Shown: positions 1,574 to 56,203 of the stretch, piece after piece
Position numbering within the stretch: position 1 is the first letter of the stretch
Layout of the letters: each line of letters begins with the position of its first letter
Assembly: GCA_903852325.1 (NCBI GenBank)
Contig: CAINQO010000035.1
Span: 34,117 to 98,116 of the forward strand
Source of the DNA: Candidatus Omnitrophota bacterium
GTDB taxonomy: Bacteria; Omnitrophota; Gorgyraeia; Gygaellales; Profunditerraquicolaceae
Direction of reading: 5' to 3'
Length of the DNA stretch: 64,000 bases
Program-made: the position numbers and the translations under genes
Notes under the pieces: model-generated
The model's database searches: none
The model's input: only the letters and a program-made list of their open reading frames with translations
Told to the model about the DNA's origin: nothing

Positions 1574-2655
1574 TGAATGATTTTGAGGCTTTGGTAAGCT
1601 TGAATCTTATCCCGCAGATAGGCAGCGCGCGGCTGGAGCGGCTGCTTGAGCATTTCGGCCAGCCGGAGGCGATCTTCCGGGCCAGCCGGCAATCTTTAAC
1701 GGCGGTAGTGGGCGAACAGCTTGGCCAAAGTATCCTTGATTTTGATACCGGAAAACTAAAAGCGGATTTGGCTTTGGCGCAAAAGTCGGGGATAAAGGTC
1801 CTTACCCTCCTGGATCAGGAGTATCCTGCGGCGCTAAGGCAGATACCCGGGCCGCCGATGGTGCTGTATTGTTTGGGGCAGATAACTCCGGCGGATAATT
1901 TAGCGGTGGGAATCGTCGGTTCACGCCAGGCATCCTTTTACGGATTAAATAACGCCCAAAATTTTGCCGCGCAGTTAGCGGCCCGGGGGATTACCGTAGT
2001 TTCCGGAATGGCCCGCGGAGTGGATACTTTTGCCCACCGCGGCGCTTTAAAAGCAAAGGGGCGCACCCTGGCGGTGATCGGCAGCGGTTTTAAGCATATT
2101 TATCCGCAGGAAAATGCGGATCTGGCAGAAGAAATTGCTGCTTGCGGGGCGGTAATCTCCGAATTTCCCATGGAGGTAAAACCTTTGCCGCAGAATTTTC
2201 CCCGGCGCAACCGCCTGATCAGCGGCTTAAGCCTGGGAGTTTTGATCACCGAGGCAGCCAGGAACAGCGGGGCCCTGATCACCGCGGATTTCGCTTTGGA
2301 GCAGGGAAAAGAAGTTTTTGCTTTACCCGGAAGGATAGATTCAGCCGGTTCCCTGGGGACTAACGCTTTGCTTAAGCAGGGGGCAAAACTGGTCACCTGC
2401 TGCGAAGATATCCTGGAAGAGCTGAACTTGGTGGATGCGGGAGGCAAAGATATAGAACCGCCGCCGGAAAATAAAATCCCCGCGGACCGCCAGGAAAGAG
2501 AGCTTTACGGGCACATCGGAGACCAGCCGGTGGCGATCGACGAATTAGTGCAAAAATCATCCCTGGCCAGCAGCAGGGTATTGAACCTGCTTTTAAAATT
2601 ACAATTTAAAAAGCTAATCCGGATATTGCCGGGTAAACAGTATATGAGGAATTAA
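1573..2655 (+). CDS. dprA: DNA processing protein DprA
   Basis: GIVGSRQASFYG and GMARGVDTFAHRGAL motifs. Start overlaps the aroK stop (TAATG). Confidence 0.9.
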   Translation: MNDFEALVSLNLIPQIGSARLERLLEHFGQPEAIFRASRQSLTAVVGEQLGQSILDFDTGKLKADLALAQKSGIKVLTLLDQEYPAALRQIPGPPMVLYCLGQITPADNLAVGIVGSRQASFYGLNNAQNFAAQLAARGITVVSGMARGVDTFAHRGALKAKGRTLAVIGSGFKHIYPQENADLAEEIAACGAVISEFPMEVKPLPQNFPRRNRLISGLSLGVLITEAARNSGALITADFALEQGKEVFALPGRIDSAGSLGTNALLKQGAKLVTCCEDILEELNLVDAGGKDIEPPPENKIPADRQERELYGHIGDQPVAIDELVQKSSLASSRVLNLLLKLQFKKLIRILPGKQYMRN

Positions 2656-4808: not shown

Positions 4809-5678
4809 ATGGATAAATACATCGAAAAATTCGCCCGCTATCTGGAAATCGAGAAGAATTATTCTTTGCATACGATCATAAATTATAAATTGGACCTGCA
4901 GGGGTTCAATAAATTTGTTTCCGGGACCGAGCTGGAAAAGATCGATTACCTGACCTTGAGAAAATATCTGGCGGTCCTGAAAGAAAAAAATTTCGGTAAC
5001 CGCACCGTCGGGCGCAAGCTTTCCACCCTGCGCAGTTTTTTCCGTTTTCTTTGCCGGGAAGGCCATCTGAAGACCAACCCGATCCTGATGCTTTCCAGCC
5101 CCAAACTGGATAAACGCCTGCCTTCTTTTATGACCGAGGATGAGGTTTACCGGTTGATCGAATCAGCTTTCGCTAAAACCGCCCGGGATGATCTGGGACT
5201 GCGTGACCGGGCGATCCTGGAAGTATTTTATTCCAGCGGCCTGCGTATCTCCGAACTGGTCGGTTTAAACCTGGAGGATATCGATTTTATCAGCGGTATC
5301 CTGAAGGTCAGGGGGAAAGGCAAAAAGGAGCGCATCGTCCCCATCGGAGAAACCGCGCTCTCGGCGGTAAGGAAATACCTGGATAAAAGGAAAAAACAAA
5401 CGGAGGCTTTATTCTTAAACAATCATTCCGTCCGGATCACCGCCCGCGGGGTGCGTTTTGTGCTGGCAAAATACCTTAAGTCCACCGGGATGAAGCCTGG
5501 GGTTTGCGCGCATACTTTCCGGCACTCTTTCGCTACGCATCTTTTAAATCGCGGGGCGGATTTGCGCACGGTGCAGGAGCTGCTGGGCCATGCAAACCTT
5601 TCTTCCACGCAGATTTATACGCATTTAACTACAGACAAATTAAAGAGCGTCTACGATAAGGCGCATCCGCACGCCTAG
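4809..5678 (+). CDS. xerC: tyrosine recombinase XerC/XerD family
   Basis: HTFRHSFATHLL...LGHANLSSTQIYTH catalytic region and an N-terminal SAM-like domain. Confidence 0.85.
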   Translation: MDKYIEKFARYLEIEKNYSLHTIINYKLDLQGFNKFVSGTELEKIDYLTLRKYLAVLKEKNFGNRTVGRKLSTLRSFFRFLCREGHLKTNPILMLSSPKLDKRLPSFMTEDEVYRLIESAFAKTARDDLGLRDRAILEVFYSSGLRISELVGLNLEDIDFISGILKVRGKGKKERIVPIGETALSAVRKYLDKRKKQTEALFLNNHSVRITARGVRFVLAKYLKSTGMKPGVCAHTFRHSFATHLLNRGADLRTVQELLGHANLSSTQIYTHLTTDKLKSVYDKAHPHA

Positions 5679-5723
5679 AAGAACAGCAGTTAGCGGGTAG
5701 TGGTCAGCAGAAGAGGAAGGCCG

Positions 5724-16806: not shown

Positions 16807-16894
16807 AGGGGCGGGATGACCCCGCACCATCTTCTAATTCACGCTTTAAGTCCTAAGGTTTAATAACAATTAACTATAAGGATGGTGCGGGGTG
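16807..16894 (+). promoter_or_regulatory. anti-SD/SD hairpin module upstream of the GT4 gene (degenerate uORF)
   Basis: CCCCGCACCATCTT (16820-16833) pairs with AAGGATGGTGCGGGG (16879-16892) over 14 bp including one G-U. The GTG start is at 16892. Confidence 0.55.
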
Positions 16895-21315: not shown

Positions 21316-22245
21316 ATGATCAACTTAAAGAAGGTTAAAAGATATTCGCTTAAAGCCCGTTTAAGCAAGGTAAATAAGGGGGATTTTGCCCTTAAACCGG
21401 CTAAAGGCAGGAGTTTTTCCGTTTTTTTTGACTCCTTACCTAATATTTTAAAAGCCAAAGATTTACGCTCGGTTTCTGCCGATATTATCGCGGCGCGCCG
21501 GAAAAATAAAGGGGTGATTTTAATGGCCGGGGCCCACGTGATCAAGTGCGGGCTTAATCCGGTTTTGATCGAGTTGTTGGAAAAAAAAGTGATTACCTGT
21601 ATCTGCCTTAACGGGGCCGGATTGATCCACGATTTTGAGATCGCCTACCAGGGGAAGACTTCGGAAGATGTGGCCGCCAACCTCAAAGACGGGAAATTCG
21701 GGATGGGGATCGAGACCGCGGATTTTATCAACGCCGCGGTCAAAGAAGGGACTGAGGCGGGCTTTGGATTAGGTTATGCCTTAGCCAATAAAATGGCCGG
21801 GGCAGCTTTACCCAATAAAGATCTAAGCCTGATTTATAATGCCTATAAGCGTAAAATCCCGGTTTGTGTTTTTGCGGCGATCGGTACGGATATAATCCAT
21901 CAGCACCCTTCTTTCGACGCTGCGGCAACCGCCGTGGGCTCATTGCGGGATTTCCATATCCTGGTGGAGAGGATCCGCTCCTTGAATCAGGGGGGAGTGG
22001 TTTTAAATTTCGGCTCCGCGGTGCTTTTGCCTGAAGTATTTTTAAAGGCTTTGAACCTTGCCCGCAACCTGGGCAGCAAAGTGAAAGATTTTACTTCCGC
22101 TAATTTCGATATGATTTACCAGTACCGCGCGGCACAGAATGTAGTGAGCCGTCCCACCGCTTCCGGGGGTAAAGGCTATTATATTATCGGTCACCATGAG
22201 ATCATGCTGCCGCTTTTAGCCCAAAGTATATTGGAAAAAATCTGA
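21316..22245 (+). CDS. deoxyhypusine-synthase-like (DHS-fold) family protein, function unknown
   Basis: MAGAHVIKCGLNPVLIELLEKKVITCICLNGAGLIHDF and IPVCVFAAIGTDIIHQHP resemble DHS-family blocks; this is a by-eye call only. ATG 21316 is preferred over the track's TTG at 21277. Confidence 0.45.
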   Translation: MINLKKVKRYSLKARLSKVNKGDFALKPAKGRSFSVFFDSLPNILKAKDLRSVSADIIAARRKNKGVILMAGAHVIKCGLNPVLIELLEKKVITCICLNGAGLIHDFEIAYQGKTSEDVAANLKDGKFGMGIETADFINAAVKEGTEAGFGLGYALANKMAGAALPNKDLSLIYNAYKRKIPVCVFAAIGTDIIHQHPSFDAAATAVGSLRDFHILVERIRSLNQGGVVLNFGSAVLLPEVFLKALNLARNLGSKVKDFTSANFDMIYQYRAAQNVVSRPTASGGKGYYIIGHHEIMLPLLAQSILEKI

Positions 22246-22317
22246 CCCCGCACCTTCTTCGTATTCGATCTGAAGGTCAGGGGTAAAAAATAGTTAATAA
22301 TAGGAAGGTGCGGGGTG
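22246..22317 (+). promoter_or_regulatory. anti-SD/SD hairpin module between the DHS-like gene stop and the heptose kinase start
   Basis: CCCCGCACCTTCTT (22246-22259) begins directly after the TGA stop (22243-22245). It pairs over 14 bp with AGGAAGGTGCGGGG (22302-22315). The GTG start is at 22315. Confidence 0.6.
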
Positions 22318-27403: not shown

Positions 27404-28106
27404 GGGCCTGGCTAAATCCTATGACGGTCGCTGGGTGGTTAAGGGCGTGGATATCACGGTCAAGCGCGGGGAGATCGTCGGGCTTTTAGGCCCCAACGGA
27501 GCCGGCAAGACTACTACTTTTTATATGATCGTCGGGATCGTCCCCCCCAACAAGGGCACGATCGTTTTTGATAACCATGAAATCACCCGGATGGCGATCC
27601 ACGAGCGGGCGCGTTTCGGGATCGGCTATCTTGCCCAGGAACCCTCGATATTCCGGAAACTGACCGTGGAAGAAAATATCAACGCGATCCTGGAGACTTT
27701 GCCTTTGAGCCGCGCGCAGAGAAAAAACCGGCTGGCGTTTTTGCTGGAGGAGTTGAATATCGCGCACCTGGCAAAGCATAAAGCCTACACTTTAAGCGGC
27801 GGAGAGAGAAGGCGCCTGGAGATCACCCGGGCGCTGGTGACCAATCCTTCTTTTATCCTGCTGGATGAACCTTTCAGCGGGATCGACCCGATCGTCGTCA
27901 ATGAAGCGCAGGAGATCATTAAGGAATTAAAGGCCAAAGGCCTGGGTATTCTTTTGACCGACCATAATGTGCGGGAGACCCTGGCGATCACCGACCGGGC
28001 GTATTTAATTTCCGAAGGGGCGATCCTTATTTCCGGATCCGCGGAGGAGCTGATTAATCACCCTCAGGCCCGCCAGGTTTATTTAGGTGAGAAGTTTAGG
28101 ATGTAA
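27384..28106 (+). CDS. lptB: LPS export ABC transporter ATP-binding protein
   Basis: Walker A is GPNGAGKTT, the signature is [11 protein letters not shown] and Walker B is ILLDEP. The C-terminus is YLGEKFRM. Confidence 0.95.
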
Positions 28107-28248
28107 CCCCGCACCTTCTTCTGTATTCGGAAGAAAAACGGATTGATTAAAGGCGCGGGACAATAATAACCATGGTCATTTCTTTAAACATCAAGGTTCA
28201 AAGCTTAGATGCAGGGAATGATATAATTAAGAAAGAAGGTGCGGGGTG
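28107..28248 (+). promoter_or_regulatory. anti-SD/SD hairpin module (109-nt loop) between the lptB stop and the tig start
   Basis: CCCCGCACCTTCTT (28107-28120) begins directly after the TAA stop. It pairs perfectly over 14 bp with AAGAAGGTGCGGGG (28233-28246). The GTG start is at 28246. Confidence 0.6.
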
Positions 28249-29133
28249 AAAACCGAAGTTAAGAAATTAGACGGAACTAAACGTGAAATTAATGTCGCCG
28301 TGACCGGCGACTTGGTCAAAAATAAATTTGAAGAAGTTTTCGCACAGGTCGCCAAAGAAGCCAAGGTCCCGGGTTTTCGCCCGGGAAAAGCGCCCCGGGA
28401 TCTTCTGGAAAAGCATTACGGTTCCAGCGTCCATGAGCAGGTGTTAAAGGAGCTGGTCCCGGATGTGTATAACCAGGCGGTCGCGGCGGAAAAACTCGAT
28501 GTCATTGAGCTGCCCCAGATCACCGATGTGCAGCTGGATCGGGCCAGCCTTTCTTTTAAAGCGGTCGTGGAGGTCAGCCCGGAAATTACGCTGAAGAATT
28601 ATAAAAACCAGGTAATTAATTATAAGCTGCCGGTTGTTTCCGCGGATGAAGTGAAACGCCAGATCGACTCGGTCAAGGAATCGCGTAAGGCCGAAAACCT
28701 GGATGATAAATTCGCCCGCTCCCTGGGTTATCCTGATTTAGGGGAATTGGAAAAAGCGGTGGAAAGACAGATCTTTCTTACCAAGGAGAATCAGGAACGC
28801 CAGCGGATTGAAAATGAATTAATCGAAAATATTACCAAAGGGGTGGAATTTAAGCTGCCGCAAGGATTGGTGGACCGGCAGGTTCAGGATATGCTGCGGC
28901 AGACCAAGATCGATTTGGCGATGAAAGGGCTGCCCCGGGAGAAGATCGACGCGCAGGATAAATTGCTTTTAGAGGGGATCGAACCGGAAGCAAAAAAGCA
29001 GGTCAAGATTTACCTGATCCTGGCGCAGATCGCGAAAAAAGAGAATATCGCCATCGACGACCATATGCCGCGCAAGGTGATGGAGTTTCTGCTGGGTGAA
29101 GCAGAGTGGAAGGCTGCACAAGAGAATAAATAG
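28246..29133 (+). CDS. tig: trigger factor-like chaperone lacking the PPIase domain
   Basis: The N-terminal ribosome-binding signature GFRPGKAP is present. The C-terminal arm domain follows directly, giving 295 aa versus about 430 for canonical TF. Confidence 0.8.
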   Translation: MKTEVKKLDGTKREINVAVTGDLVKNKFEEVFAQVAKEAKVPGFRPGKAPRDLLEKHYGSSVHEQVLKELVPDVYNQAVAAEKLDVIELPQITDVQLDRASLSFKAVVEVSPEITLKNYKNQVINYKLPVVSADEVKRQIDSVKESRKAENLDDKFARSLGYPDLGELEKAVERQIFLTKENQERQRIENELIENITKGVEFKLPQGLVDRQVQDMLRQTKIDLAMKGLPREKIDAQDKLLLEGIEPEAKKQVKIYLILAQIAKKENIAIDDHMPRKVMEFLLGEAEWKAAQENK

Positions 29134-29266
29134 CGGTATTCATGTTGATTAGCTCCGCGCCTAAGCCTTGGATGTTACGCTTAGCATATATTCGAATATT
29201 GTAACGCGCGGAGTAAATTAAAAATTACCACTTATTATAAATAATTTTAAATTTAAGGAGGCAAAA
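29131..29266 (+). promoter_or_regulatory. structured leader/repeat upstream of clpP (copy 1 of 2)
   Basis: About 90 nt are shared with 55531-55645. The 8-bp stem CTCCGCGC/GCGCGGAG (29153-29160/29206-29213) encloses hairpin CTAAGC/GCTTAG and the palindrome ATATTCGAATAT. Confidence 0.55.
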
Positions 29267-29881
29267 ATGGATATTAAGAACCAAATATTGGTCCCGATGG
29301 TTATTGAGCAGAACCCGCGCGGTTTTGAACGCGCATACGATATTTACTCGCGCCTGCTTAAGGACCGGATCCTGTTCATCGGCACCCCCATCGACGATTA
29401 TGTCGCTAATTTAGTGATCGCCCAGCTTCTTTTCCTGCAAATGGAGGACAAAGATAAAGATATTAATATCTATATCAATTCTCCCGGGGGTTCGGTAACC
29501 GCGGGCCTGGCAATTTATGACACGATGCAATTTATCAAATGCGATGTGGCCACCTATTGCGTGGGCCAGGCAGCCAGCATGGGGGCGGTATTACTGGCGG
29601 CGGGAAGAAAAGGAAAACGTTTCGTGCTCCCCAATTCCCGGGTAATGATCCATCAGCCCTGGGGAGGGGTGCAGGGAGCGGCCTCGGATATTTCCATCCA
29701 GGCCAAAGAGATCTTAAAGCTGCGCGATCGGCTCAATGAAATCCTGGCGCACCATACCGGCCAGCCGCTGGAAAAAATACAAAAGGACACGGACAGGGAT
29801 TATTTTATGTCCGCTCAGGAATCCAAAGATTACGGTTTGGTCGATGAAGTGATCTTGCCGGAAACACCGAAAAAGAATTAA
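29267..29881 (+). CDS. clpP: ATP-dependent Clp protease proteolytic subunit
   Basis: The active-site context GQAASMGA and the MIHQP motif are present; 204 aa. Confidence 0.95.
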
Positions 29882-35804: not shown

Positions 35805-35852
35805 ATATCGAACGAGAGAGTAGTTAGCAGGCTGAATGCGGGTTAGTTAACA

Positions 35853-37198
<1,346 letters not shown>

Positions 37199-53550: not shown

Positions 53551-53719
53551 AGGAAGGGCGGGATGAACCCTGCATTTTCTTGTTATTCAATATTAAAGTC
53601 TTAGGAATTTGATGATTAAACAGAAGGAAGGTGCGGGGGTGAATCCCGCTCCTTCTAATTGTTCAATGCTAAAACCCATACGTTTTAAAGAATTCAATAA
53701 GAAAGAAGGAGCGGGATGA
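53551..53719 (+). promoter_or_regulatory. tandem (about 2.5 copies) anti-SD/SD hairpin modules with two uORFs between trpS and scpA
   Basis: The arms lie at 53551-53562, 53568-53582, 53621-53639, 53644-53656 and 53704-53716. The last pair is a perfect 13-bp helix covering the SD GAAGGAG and the A of ATG 53716. Confidence 0.6.
53639..53719 (+). CDS. candidate 26-aa leader peptide (uORF2); its stop overlaps the scpA ATG
   Basis: The frame GTG 53639 to TGA 53717-53719 encodes (V/M)NPAPSNCSMLKPIRFKEFNKKEGAG. It is preceded by an SD copy GAAGGTG and is homologous to the uORF at 35853-35933. Confidence 0.35.
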   Translation: MNPAPSNCSMLKPIRFKEFNKKEGAG

Positions 53720-54489: not shown

Positions 54490-55504
54490 TTCCGTTATCA
54501 CCGACGTAAAAGAATCCGAAGAGGATATTGTTTTAAATATATCCCTGCGGCCAAATAAATTTACGGATTTTGTCGGGCATAAGGATATCGTGGATAACCT
54601 TAAAATTTCCATCCAGGCCGCCAAGCAAAGGAGCGAGCCCCTGGAGCATGTGCTTTTAAGCGGGCCTCCGGGTTTAGGCAAAACTTCCCTGTCGCATATT
54701 ATCGCTCACGAAATGGGGGCAAAGATCACCGCCACCAGCGGCCCGGCGATCGAGCGGGCCGGGGACCTGATCGGGATCCTTACCAACCTGGAAAGAGGGG
54801 ATATCCTGTTTATCGACGAGATCCACCGGATGTCTAAAGTCGTGGAAGAATTCCTGTATCCGGCGATGGAAAGTTTCCAGATCGATTTTATAATCGATAA
54901 AGGCCCTTACGCTAAAACGATTAAATTCAACCTCAAGCCTTTTACCCTGATCGGCGCCACCACCCGCACCGGGCTTCTGGCCGCTCCGCTCAGGGGGCGC
55001 TTCGGTTTGTTCTACAGCCTGGATTTTTATAAAGAGGAGGAGCTGGCCAGAATAATCAAAAATTCAAGCCAGCTGTTGACGATAAAGATCGATGACGCGG
55101 CGGCACTGGAGATCGCCAAGCGTTCCCGGGGGACTCCCCGGATCGCCAACCGCCTCCTGCGCCGGGTAAGGGATTACGCTCAGGTGTTGAAAATGGATAA
55201 AGTCGAACGGGCCTCGGCCTCCAAGATCCTGGATGACCTGGGTATCGACCAGGCCGGGTTTGATGACCTGGACCGTAAAGTTTTGAGATTAATTTTGGAA
55301 TCATTCGGCGGAGGGCCGGTGGGGATAGAATCTTTGGCCGCCAGCCTCAATGAAGAAGTGGATACGATCGAAGATGCGGTGGAACCCTATCTGTTGATGG
55401 CCGGATATTTAAAGCGCACTTCCCGGGGGCGCCTGGCCACCCGTAAAGCTTATGAACATTTCGGTTTAAAATTCAACCGGGAACAGCAGGAAGAGATTTT
55501 CTAA
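54452..55504 (+). CDS. ruvB: Holliday junction branch migration helicase RuvB
   Basis: LRPNKFTDFVGH, GPPGLGKTSL, IDEIHR and RGTPRIANRLLRRVRD motifs. Confidence 0.95.
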   Translation: MNEETRHPLLKANSVITDVKESEEDIVLNISLRPNKFTDFVGHKDIVDNLKISIQAAKQRSEPLEHVLLSGPPGLGKTSLSHIIAHEMGAKITATSGPAIERAGDLIGILTNLERGDILFIDEIHRMSKVVEEFLYPAMESFQIDFIIDKGPYAKTIKFNLKPFTLIGATTRTGLLAAPLRGRFGLFYSLDFYKEEELARIIKNSSQLLTIKIDDAAALEIAKRSRGTPRIANRLLRRVRDYAQVLKMDKVERASASKILDDLGIDQAGFDDLDRKVLRLILESFGGGPVGIESLAASLNEEVDTIEDAVEPYLLMAGYLKRTSRGRLATRKAYEHFGLKFNREQQEEIF

Positions 55505-55645
55505 ATTAACAATTGCCACTGATTATAATAGGTAGTGGTTGAAAGCGTCGAACTAAGCCTATAGGTTACGGTTTATATATATTCGAATATTGAAACGTTC
55601 GACGTAAATTAAAAATTACCACTGATTATAAACAATTTTTAATTT
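55505..55645 (+). promoter_or_regulatory. structured leader/repeat upstream of queH (copy 2 of 2)
   Basis: The 8-bp stem CGTCGAAC/GTTCGACG (55546-55553/55597-55604) compensates for the copy-1 stem. It carries the same ATATTCGAATAT palindrome and the AAATTAAAAATTACCACT tail. It is flanked by direct repeats AATT(G/A)CCACTGATTATAA (55511-55528 and 55614-55631). Confidence 0.55.
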
Positions 55646-56203
55646 ATGGATATTCTGTTGCACATCTGCTGCGGGCCTTGTTTGATTTATCCTTTCGGCA
55701 AATTAAAAGAAAAAGGATTTAATATCCGGGGTTATTACTATAATCCCAATCTCTATCCGCAGGATGAATATCTTCGCCGCGTTGAGGCGCTGCAGCTCTT
55801 ATGCCGGGAATTTTCGCTGGAGGTCGCCTATCCCGGGCACAACCCTGAGGATTTTTCCCGGACAGTTAAATCCCTGGAAGATCCTTTGGCAAAACAGCGC
55901 TGCGTTTTATGCTGGTCATTGCGTTTGCGTAAGACCGCCCAGGCGGCCAGGGAAGCCGGCGTAAAAACGTTCAGCACTACTTTATTGGTCAGCCCGTACC
56001 AGGATCATGACGCGTTGCGCCGTTTAGGCACTCAGATCGCCCGGGAAACCGGCGTAGATTTTTATTATGAAGATTTCCGCCCCGGGTTTAAATGGGCGCA
56101 GCAGGAAGCGAAAGATAAAGGTATTTACCGGCAAAAATATTGCGGCTGCGAATATTCCATGGTGAAAACAAAACCGGCCGCACCGGTCCAGGCAAAAAAA
56201 TGA
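55646..56203 (+). CDS. queH: epoxyqueuosine reductase QueH (DUF208)
   Basis: LLHICCGPC start and the later CxxC and CGCEYS motifs. It lies in a locus with queA and tgt. Confidence 0.85.
   Translation: MDILLHICCGPCLIYPFGKLKEKGFNIRGYYYNPNLYPQDEYLRRVEALQLLCREFSLEVAYPGHNPEDFSRTVKSLEDPLAKQRCVLCWSLRLRKTAQAAREAGVKTFSTTLLVSPYQDHDALRRLGTQIARETGVDFYYEDFRPGFKWAQQEAKDKGIYRQKYCGCEYSMVKTKPAAPVQAKK

Follow-up and report, generated by a model that had tools for sequence, protein, structure and literature searches.

We analyzed a 64,000-nucleotide (nt) stretch of the genome of a Candidatus Omnitrophota bacterium, referred to below as the window. Its ClpP and RuvB proteins place it in uncultured Omnitrophota, and its genes are densely packed and all on one strand across the 64 kb. 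Two spacers of the window contain the same element of about 110 nt. Copy A (29131 to 29255) occupies the spacer between tig and clpP, and copy B (55529 to 55646) occupies the spacer between ruvB and queH. An earlier note had described this shared region upstream of clpP and queH as a structured leader, and the region is indeed present at both places. The two copies align from about 20 nt 5' of an 8-bp stem through to the downstream start codons. The element is probably a mobile intergenic repeat, and its enclosing stem appears to be under selection.

Architecture of the element

One unit is about 105 to 120 nt long. It consists of a 5' tail, a domain of about 60 nt closed by the stem P1, and then a hairpin, P4. 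The 5' tail has the pattern TAG(C/G)..AGTGG..GAAAG and directly precedes P1. P1 has the pattern CNNCGNNC/GNNCGNNG, and it encloses a P2 block, TAAGCC-N10-(G/C)G(C/T)TT(A/G), and the block TATATTCGAATATTGNAAC. There are stop codons in all six frames of the element. P1 is the dominant feature of the thermodynamic folds of both window copies.

All parts of the window copies lie on the plus strand. The 5' tail of copy A (TAGCGGTATTCATGTTGATTAG; 29131 to 29152) begins with the TAG stop codon of tig (29131 to 29133). It is homologous to the TAG(G)GTAGTGGT..GAAAG found 5' of P1 in copy B and at L114, L106a, and L095 (loci outside the window are given L numbers); the TAG at L114 is the stop codon of a sigma-70 gene. 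The P1 domain (29153 to 29213) matches the covariance model described below with 60.8 bits (E value, 9e-14). Its P1 arms are CTCCGCGC (29153 to 29160) and GCGCGGAG (29206 to 29213). Inside them are the inner hairpin P2, formed by CTAAGC (29161 to 29166) and GCTTAG (29179 to 29184), and the conserved core TATATTCGAATATTG(T/A)AAC (29187 to 29205), which holds the palindrome ATATTCGAATAT at 29188 to 29199. P4 (29214 to 29255) has an A-tract arm (29214 to 29226), a loop (29227 to 29242), and a T-tract arm (29243 to 29255). It forms 12 of 13 pairs, none of them G-C, and with a free energy (dG) of about -2 to -3 kcal/mol it is the weakest P4 of the family. The Shine-Dalgarno sequence of clpP, AGGAGG, lies directly 3' of P4, at 29256, and the clpP ATG is at 29267.

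Copy B is preceded by a partial extra P4 5' arm and loop (TAAATTAACAATTGCCACTGATTATAA; 55502 to 55528), the first three bases of which are the TAA stop codon of ruvB. Together with 55529 to 55539, this segment can pair as a CCACT/AGTGG hairpin. Because the spacers between P1 domains in tandem arrays elsewhere consist of an A-tract and a CCACT...AGTGG hairpin, we read 55502 to 55528 as a partial repeat. The 5' tail of copy B is TAGGTAGTGGTTGAAAG (55529 to 55545). Its P1 domain (55546 to 55604) matches the model with 59.8 bits (E value, 1.7e-13) and has a fold z-score of -2.6. The P1 arms are CGTCGAAC (55546 to 55553) and GTTCGACG (55597 to 55604), P2 pairs TAAGCC (55554 to 55559) with GGTTTA (55570 to 55575) through one G-U, and the core lies at 55578 to 55596, with its palindrome at 55579 to 55590. 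P4 of copy B (55605 to 55646) is a perfect 13-bp A/U hairpin (55605 to 55617 with 55634 to 55646) with a 16-nt loop, a dG of -5.4 kcal/mol, and a z-score of -3.1. The P4 3' arm, AATTTT(T/A)AATTTA, ends 11 nt 5' of the clpP ATG in copy A and on the A of the queH ATG in copy B.

Several details of the earlier note bear on this layout. What it called an invariant tail, TAAATTAAAAATTACCACT, is present in both copies (29214 to 29232 and 55605 to 55623), but it is really the 5' arm and loop of P4. Its outer pairing of AGCGGTA with TACCACT forms six of seven pairs and contains a C.A mismatch; the reverse complement of TACCACT is AGTGGTA. Its inner hairpin and its 8-bp stem, in which four of the eight positions differ between the copies and all four are compensated, are exactly as described.

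The window contains exactly two occurrences of the 15-mer TATATTCGAATATTG. The 19-mer tail TAAATTAAAAATTACCACT has three window matches with three or fewer mismatches, compared with 0.03 expected by chance; the third is the partial copy at 55502 to 55528. A covariance-model scan of the window with filters off found no copy beyond A and B. A solitary match to the 5'-tail consensus, TAGCGGGTAGTGG (5691 to 5703), is either a remnant or chance. It lies in the 21-nt spacer after a gene for a XerC-like tyrosine recombinase (4809 to 5678) and overlaps a GTG start at 5700.

Further copies and covariation of the enclosing stem

We scanned metagenome contigs for the exact pattern TATATTCGAATATTGNAAC and obtained 29 loci. 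Seven of them carry the full architecture, and the remainder are chance coding matches. We built a covariance model from a hand-registered alignment of 12 sequences and combined it with BLAST for diverged copies. This recovered L095b, L095c, L094b, L106c, L087b, and L106d, all without the exact core, and brought the total to 15; a 5'-truncated fragment of the element was located after L106d. The host contig L106 belongs to the same Omnitrophota clade, as its flavodoxin and that of the RuvB relatives share 80% identity. Two more copies, C and D, were found in the DNA around window proteins in other assemblies of the same species. In all, there are 18 copies in seven contig sets, 4 of them within about 76 kb of this genome and the others in five further metagenome contigs. 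The pattern search also caught a tandem array (L107:1950-2230) that we judged to be an unrelated repeat. Its period is about 33 to 45 nt, its units hold the 17-mer TATTCGAATATTGAAAC flanked by ATGCGCG/GTGCGCAT, and its sharing of the core 17-mer is probably a coincidence of selection.

Copy C (L133:19644-19797, corresponding to about 64095 to 64248 in window numbering) is located between metF and acsB, some 130 nt beyond the end of the window. It has CTCCGAAC/GTTCGGAG as P1 and a core that carries one G as its single change. Copy D (L138:2191-2292) lies about 4 kb before the window start, between convergent genes for a NUDIX protein and a DEAD helicase. Its core is diverged (GATTTTCGATTATTGTATC) and its P1 is perfect, and, read on the opposite strand, the last TTA of its P4 serves as the stop codon of the helicase gene.

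The earlier note had made its structural proposal depend on whether additional copies exist and maintain the stem. They exist, they keep the stem, and they show many independent compensations. Counted over 16 different copies, 98.4% of P1 cells are paired. Four positions never change (1, 4, 5, and 8; C, C, G, and C), and positions 2, 3, 6, and 7 vary combinatorially, so that there are about 12 different stems with 31 double changes across four pairs. The changes are always on both sides, with no wobble pair in 127 cells. None of 500 shuffles reached the covariation score of P1, and pairing fell to 21 to 40% in controls with the partner strand slid. RNAalifold, which was not fitted to the proposed structure, predicted exactly P1 and nothing else. 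The pattern of substitutions thus supports the enclosing stem as a selected nucleic acid structure.

The interior of the P1 domain behaves differently from the stem. P2 is weak, with 84% of cells paired, and was not predicted by RNAalifold; one of its pairs shows a series of G-C, G-U, and A-U, with five G-U cells. The palindrome ATATTCGAATAT is exact in 11 of the 18 copies and one base off in copy C. It is lost in the other six (L095b, L095c, L106c, L087b, L106d, and the L138 copy), four of which retain a perfect P1. Therefore, the stem and not the palindrome is the family-wide constant. A possible hairpin P3 formed from the palindrome shows no covariation, as the palindrome is invariant where present, and the diverged copies keep at most three or four A-U pairs in a shifted register. 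A pseudoknot between the P2 loop (GTTAC) and the core GNAAC was rejected because it is perfect in only 2 of 15 copies. A small peptide was likewise rejected: other copies do not preserve the 20-codon open reading frame of copy A.

P4 forms a hairpin in 14 of 15 copies; its 5' arm is A-rich, its loop 10 to 18 nt long, and its 3' arm U-rich, and the z-scores are -3 to -8. Its sequences differ among subfamilies yet remain complementary. An intrinsic terminator is a G+C-rich stem with a short loop, followed by a U-tract. P4 is terminator shaped, with three to five G-C pairs and a T-tract, in L106a, L106c, L087b, L094b, and L106d, and in several copies the shape is that of a bidirectional intrinsic terminator. 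The P4 of the window copies and L114 has no G-C pairs and a dG of about -5 kcal/mol or weaker, and the loops are 10 to 18 nt long throughout the family. P4 loops often hold TATAAA-like boxes. We compared folding energies between the two strands of the element and found no asymmetry.

The same junctions lack the element in relatives

We then compared the occupied junctions with those of relatives whose proteins are 87 to 93% identical. In these genomes, tig and clpP, ruvB and queH, and metF and acsB are 0 to 40 nt apart, with no element between them. The distance from ruvB to queH is 0 to 13 nt in five relatives (L123, L124, L127, L130, and L131; RuvB identity, 87 to 91%) versus 141 nt in the window, and in L123 the ruvB TAG stop is directly followed by the queH TTG start. 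Similarly, tig and clpP are separated by about 20 to 40 nt without the element in L006 and L007, and the metF stop codon adjoins the acsB ATG, at a distance of 0 nt, in three relatives (L127, L130, and L131) versus 154 nt in this genome. The covariance model had no match in about 105 kb (21-kb regions) of five distinct relatives with the same gene order, and a search of 15 Omnitrophota clpP loci found no copy. Since the same junctions measure 0 to 40 nt without the element in relatives, this comparison of sequences shows the copies at tig-clpP, ruvB-queH, and metF-acsB to be recent, lineage-specific insertions into tight operon junctions. The family is patchily distributed among related uncultured Omnitrophota.

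The earlier note had also pointed to a gene start, ATGGATATT, shared by clpP and queH. This is a coincidence: queH of element-free relatives already starts with (T/A)TGGATATT or ATGAATATC.

Four other assemblies of the same species (L002 to L005) have contig ends within copy A or at its edge (75, 48, 129, and 146 nt upstream of the clpP ATG), and assembly breaks there are expected at a repeat.

Neighboring genes, orientation, and clusters

The genes next to the copies have unrelated functions. The flanking pairs are tig/clpP, ruvB/queH, metF/acsB, sigma-70/apt, GYD/LOG, RodA/radical SAM, and response regulator/MerR, and further neighbors include genes for a flavodoxin, a glyoxalase, and an HD protein, as well as the spacer between 23S and 5S rRNA genes. 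We found no shared pathway or regulon among the associated genes. Orientation is also mixed. Five or six copies are in the sense direction between codirectional genes, four (L093, L094a, L094b, and L101) are antisense to both neighbors, and one (the L138 copy) has convergent genes on its two sides. The window copies, L114, and L106a are upstream of genes and co-oriented with them.

Copies occur in clusters. L095 has three copies within 360 nt in both orientations, L106 has four copies and the 5'-truncated fragment within 7.9 kb, and L087 has a convergent pair. The L087 pair is found at the end of an rRNA operon (L087:2236-2883). Copy a (2498 to 2558, minus strand) is in the sense direction in the 23S-5S spacer, and its P4 touches the 5S gene (2340 to 2456). 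Copy b (2236 to 2294, plus strand) is antisense, and its strong P4 (2295 to 2339) follows directly after the 5S 3' end, where the terminator of the rRNA operon is expected.

A second repeat family in the window

The window contains a second repeat family, at 16817 to 16893, 22243 to 22317, 28104 to 28248, 35852 to 35932, and 53551 to 53715. Inverted repeats, CCCCGCACCTTCT ... AGAAGGTGCGGGG, form the ends of its units (compensated variants occur at 16817 and 53640), and the units are flanked by TGA(A). The TGA or TAA on the left is the stop codon of the upstream gene, and the (G)GTGA or (G)ATGA on the right is the start of the next gene, for which the 3' repeat provides a Shine-Dalgarno sequence (GAAGGTG or GAAGGAG). 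Between trpS and scpA, relatives have an overlapping ATGA stop/start, versus a 165-nt insert with nested units in the window. This second family behaves like a true MITE (miniature inverted-repeat transposable element) and has colonized the same kind of junction in this genome.

Another insert was seen outside the window. At L126:17905-18022, an unrelated, hairpin-rich insert of 118 nt fills the metF-acsB junction that is empty in three other relatives. Stop/start junctions as tight as this one may be favored sites of insertion in this clade.

Interpretation

We think it probable that the element is an undescribed, noncoding, structured, nonautonomous mobile intergenic repeat. It would resemble MITEs, repetitive extragenic palindromic (REP) sequences, and CcrM-associated intergenic repeats (CIR), without clear terminal repeats. 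This reading rests on the recent insertions, the patchy distribution, the occurrence in either orientation, the clusters, the truncated copies, and the presence of several subfamilies in one genome.

In this scenario, the element would be mobilized in trans, and its propagation may depend on a folded single strand. P1 may display the conserved interior to a hairpin-recognizing enzyme or another protein, as in REP sequences and their REP-associated tyrosine transposases (RAYT), the ends of IS200/IS605 elements, and attC sites. A structure formed on a single strand of either polarity fits the strictly Watson-Crick stem of free sequence, the conserved interior, and the lack of strand asymmetry. 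A compatible alternative route is intrastrand template-switch repair, which could keep the arms complementary. P4 would be a terminator-like insulating module.

Each window copy would then separate genes that had been translationally coupled or nearly so, and the ancestral stop/start coupling would be lost. Transcription probably reads through the window copies into clpP and queH, because they are co-oriented with the operons and their P4 has no G-C pairs. As a result, clpP and queH may gain an incidental structured intercistronic leader. After insertion, clpP appears to retain its ancestral AGGAGG, queH would now begin at an AUG at the foot of P4 without a Shine-Dalgarno sequence, and acsB may use a new AAGGAAAG downstream of the insert.

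Several observations weigh against a mobile repeat. We found no terminal inverted repeats that the copies share. The 3' end (..AATTTTTAATTTA) is not an inverted copy of the 5' tail (TAG..AGTGG..), and the only complementarity between the ends is 5 to 7 bp of AGTGG(T)/(A)CCACT, limited to the window-type subfamily. No clean target-site duplication was found at the copies, the genomes with the nearest empty sites have proteins about 10% diverged, and the element ends are fixed only to within a few bases. No partner transposase or Y1/HUH gene turned up in the DNA at hand, in which no dedicated search was made. The only Phage_integrase gene in the Pfam listing, which spans the first ~13 kb of the window and ~8 kb upstream, is the XerC-like recombinase gene, in its usual dprA-topA-xerC neighborhood. 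The loop sequences are conserved while the stems covary, which, with the P2 series from G-C through G-U to A-U, is the behavior of a functional RNA. All four copies in this genome are on the gene-sense strand, and the sense copy inside the rRNA operon spacer is compatible with a processed RNA. Finally, the copy number of roughly 80 to 130 per genome is only extrapolated from 4 copies in about 76 kb.

Two candidate insertion signatures were considered. The copy B insert seems to carry 12-bp terminal repeats, an impression that the extra partial P4 arm accounts for. A bracket of TA (TA followed by G... at one end and ...TTTA at the other) surrounds many copies; these may be the element's own bases, and a TA target duplication is not verifiable with empty sites as diverged as those available.

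Some of these observations would be expected of a multicopy functional RNA module, in which the P1 domain of about 60 nt would be a small RNA or a processing or stability element and P4 its intrinsic terminator. Such an RNA would have its own promoter or be cut from operon or rRNA precursors, its copies would have spread by duplication, and the invariant unpaired UAUAUUCGAAUAUUGNAAC would serve as a seed, as a binding site for a protein, or as a kissing-dimer site. The covarying P1 with conserved loops, the five G-U cells of P2, the sense copies of this genome and of the 23S-5S spacer, and the tandem arrays, which look like tandem small-RNA genes, all fit this account, and so does a terminator-shaped hairpin placed directly after the P1 domain (strong in L106a, L106c, L087b, and L106d). 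However, no promoter-like block is conserved upstream of P1, a stem without wobble in 127 cells is unusual for RNA helices, folding energy shows no strand asymmetry, RNAalifold supports P1 only, and there is no Rfam match. Moreover, three recent insertions at tight junctions, truncated copies, and assembly breaks are typical of mobile repeats and not of small-RNA genes. We therefore regard an RNA module of this kind as unlikely. We equally doubt that the P1 domain is a new class of structured RNA, with a three-part fold of about 60 nt and an invariant palindromic loop, in many copies per genome, that spreads itself or is spread. In that event, the element would act as a mobile functional RNA and not merely as selfish DNA; examples of its role would be a processing or "punctuation" signal, a dimerizing regulatory RNA, or a guide for its own insertion, and the RNA would be cut from operon or rRNA precursors or have its end at P4.

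The palindrome suggests another possibility, close to the earlier note's own alternative of a duplicated cassette. In this case, the element would be a mobile DNA cassette whose palindrome (holding TTCGAA and TCGA) is the operator of a dimeric regulator or a methyltransferase or restriction-modification site, much like the GANTC of the Caulobacter CIR, and the AT-rich P4 would give the downstream gene a promoter or UP-like sequence. Across genomes with differing stems, 11 copies have the exact palindrome and a twelfth departs from it by one base, TATAAA-like boxes are frequent in P4 loops, and CIR repeats provide a precedent (PMC2229807). TTCGAA is depleted in the window, with 4 sites observed (9505, 29191, 55582, and 63801, two of them in the element) versus 10.2 expected. 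The observed/expected ratio of 0.39 is the third lowest of 48 palindromes with an expectation of at least 5, and it is 1.07 in the examined regions of relatives without the element. This possibly hints that the palindrome is linked to restriction-modification or methylation, although the counts are small and the depletion fails correction for the 48 palindromes tested. The palindrome is lost in one-third of the copies, mostly beside a perfect P1, a dimeric site leaves the compensated flanking stems unexplained, and a sigma-70 promoter sought inside the element had no acceptable -35/-10 spacing. A cassette built around a protein site is thus improbable. The cassette of the earlier note came closer to the truth than its leader, but the palindrome is not what defines the element.

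That leader, a riboswitch-like or dedicated cis-regulatory 5' region coregulating clpP and queH, fits the window taken alone, where the copies are directly upstream of both genes and co-oriented with them, the stem is compensated, and a domain followed by a hairpin resembles an aptamer with its expression platform. As a general function it is contradicted. Close relatives do not have the element at the orthologous junctions, the genes before or after other copies are unrelated, and L093, L094a, L094b, and L101 are antisense, with the L138 copy between convergent genes. There are also tandem and truncated copies, and the shared ATGGATATT is ancestral coding sequence. A dedicated leader is therefore very hard to credit, as orthology, gene content, and orientation all speak against it, even though the stem is selected. 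The earlier note's observation is real and statistically solid, and its structural inference was right; the functional label was wrong. On present evidence, the element is not a new regulatory RNA class.

As a probable mobile repeat, the element is of interest for several reasons. Omnitrophota are uncultured, and to our knowledge their noncoding repertoire is essentially uncharted. The new family has unusually clean covariation, and its model can now be scanned genome-wide. Together with the second, MITE-like family, the element has repeatedly split coupled gene pairs (ruvB-queH, metF-acsB, trpS-scpA, and tig-clpP), which would amount to active rewiring of operon junctions in a compact genome by mobile structured inserts. 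Through these inserts, housekeeping genes may acquire termination, RNA processing, or independent translation starts. A conserved interior enclosed by stems that vary yet always remain complementary points to a mobilization or binding factor that reads structure. On the practical side, such repeats break genome assemblies and can pass for riboswitch candidates in covariation screens.

Comparison with known systems

We searched for the element among known RNAs and repeats. In Rfam 15, the window had no match at the gathering threshold, and the element alone, searched at E values up to 10, gave only noise (1.8 or worse). Across seven host loci, Rfam returned only rRNA, tRNA, and one sub-threshold SurA small RNA at another locus of L094 (25 bits versus a gathering threshold of 100). 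A tRNA- or tmRNA-like origin was rejected, as ARAGORN found nothing and the core TTCGAAT has no T-stem. Searches of viral contigs and of phage and plasmid records gave chance coding matches or nothing. In full-text literature searches, no paper contained the palindrome ATATTCGAATAT and none contained both "Omnitrophica" and "structured RNA"; a broader search on Omnitrophota repeats, MITEs, and noncoding RNA had no Omnitrophota paper among its 15 top-ranked matches.

By its behavior, the element seems to belong with the bacterial MITE and REP-type small repeats (PMC2229807). The bacterial MITEs Correia/NEMIS, RUP, ERIC, and YPAL have been reviewed (PMC2229807). Like them, the element is about 100 to 200 bp, noncoding, A+T-rich, multicopy, and intergenic in either orientation, with filled and empty sites between relatives and stably folding transcripts (PMC2229807). 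MITEs can carry protein-site, promoter, or terminator motifs and alter the expression of neighbors, as the element may, and the element ends, TA(G)... and ...TTTA, are also MITE-like. YPAL inserts beside dyad symmetry and generates long duplications; the 27-nt direct repeat at 55502 to 55528 and 55605 to 55631 may be a parallel. The element is small (<300 bp), noncoding, multicopy, and dispersed, and three junctions filled here are empty in relatives. However, its inverted repeats are internal (P1 and P4), with none terminal and common to the copies, and no demonstrable target-site duplication or partner insertion sequence was found in the DNA at hand. Its stem varies while its interior is conserved, the opposite of transposase-bound terminal repeats.

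REP sequences, their mosaic BIME forms, and the RAYT enzymes, like the ends of IS200/IS605 elements, offer a parallel in that recognition would be by hairpin structure and not by duplex sequence. REP/BIME repeats are also extragenic, often at gene 3' ends, occur in clusters of alternating orientation (as at L095 and L087), and can serve as terminators or mRNA stabilizers. REP sequences are G+C-rich imperfect palindromes of 20 to 40 nt with a conserved 5' GTAG. In contrast, P1 of the element closes a large conserved loop of about 43 nt, and GTAG is found only in the 5' tail of some copies.

A riboswitch with a terminator platform shares the compensated closing helix, the conserved internal loops, and the hairpin directly downstream. 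The element differs in that its copies keep to no particular gene family, orientation, or orthologous position, and in its recent insertion and its tandem and truncated copies. Integron attC sites have R''/R' boxes, RYYYAAC/GTTRRRY, and lie in cassette arrays beside intI. We rejected this assignment because P1 ends in AAC/GTT in only about half of the copies (the others have GCGC, GAGC, GACC, GCAC, or GGGC), and the flanking genes are core housekeeping genes in the same order as in relatives.

Because the element lacks the shared terminal repeats of MITEs, the size and conserved GTAG of REP sequences, and the conserved R boxes of attC sites, it is not a member of any named family, and we file it as a small structured mobile intergenic repeat. 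Its nearest architectural precedent appears to be the Caulobacter CIR. CIR are about 110 bp long, with two arms and a linker, and expose a methylation palindrome in a loop; they have been described as only partly MITE-like, with an unknown mobility mechanism (PMC2229807). There is no sequence similarity, the phylum is another one, and the motif is ATATTCGAATAT instead of GANTC. The two arms of the element are a closing stem around about 43 nt and an A/T-tract hairpin. What the two repeats share is a length of about 110 bp, a two-arm fold joined by a linker instead of one end-to-end hairpin, a short conserved palindrome in a loop, a strictly intergenic location with stop codons in all frames, and a partly MITE-like character.

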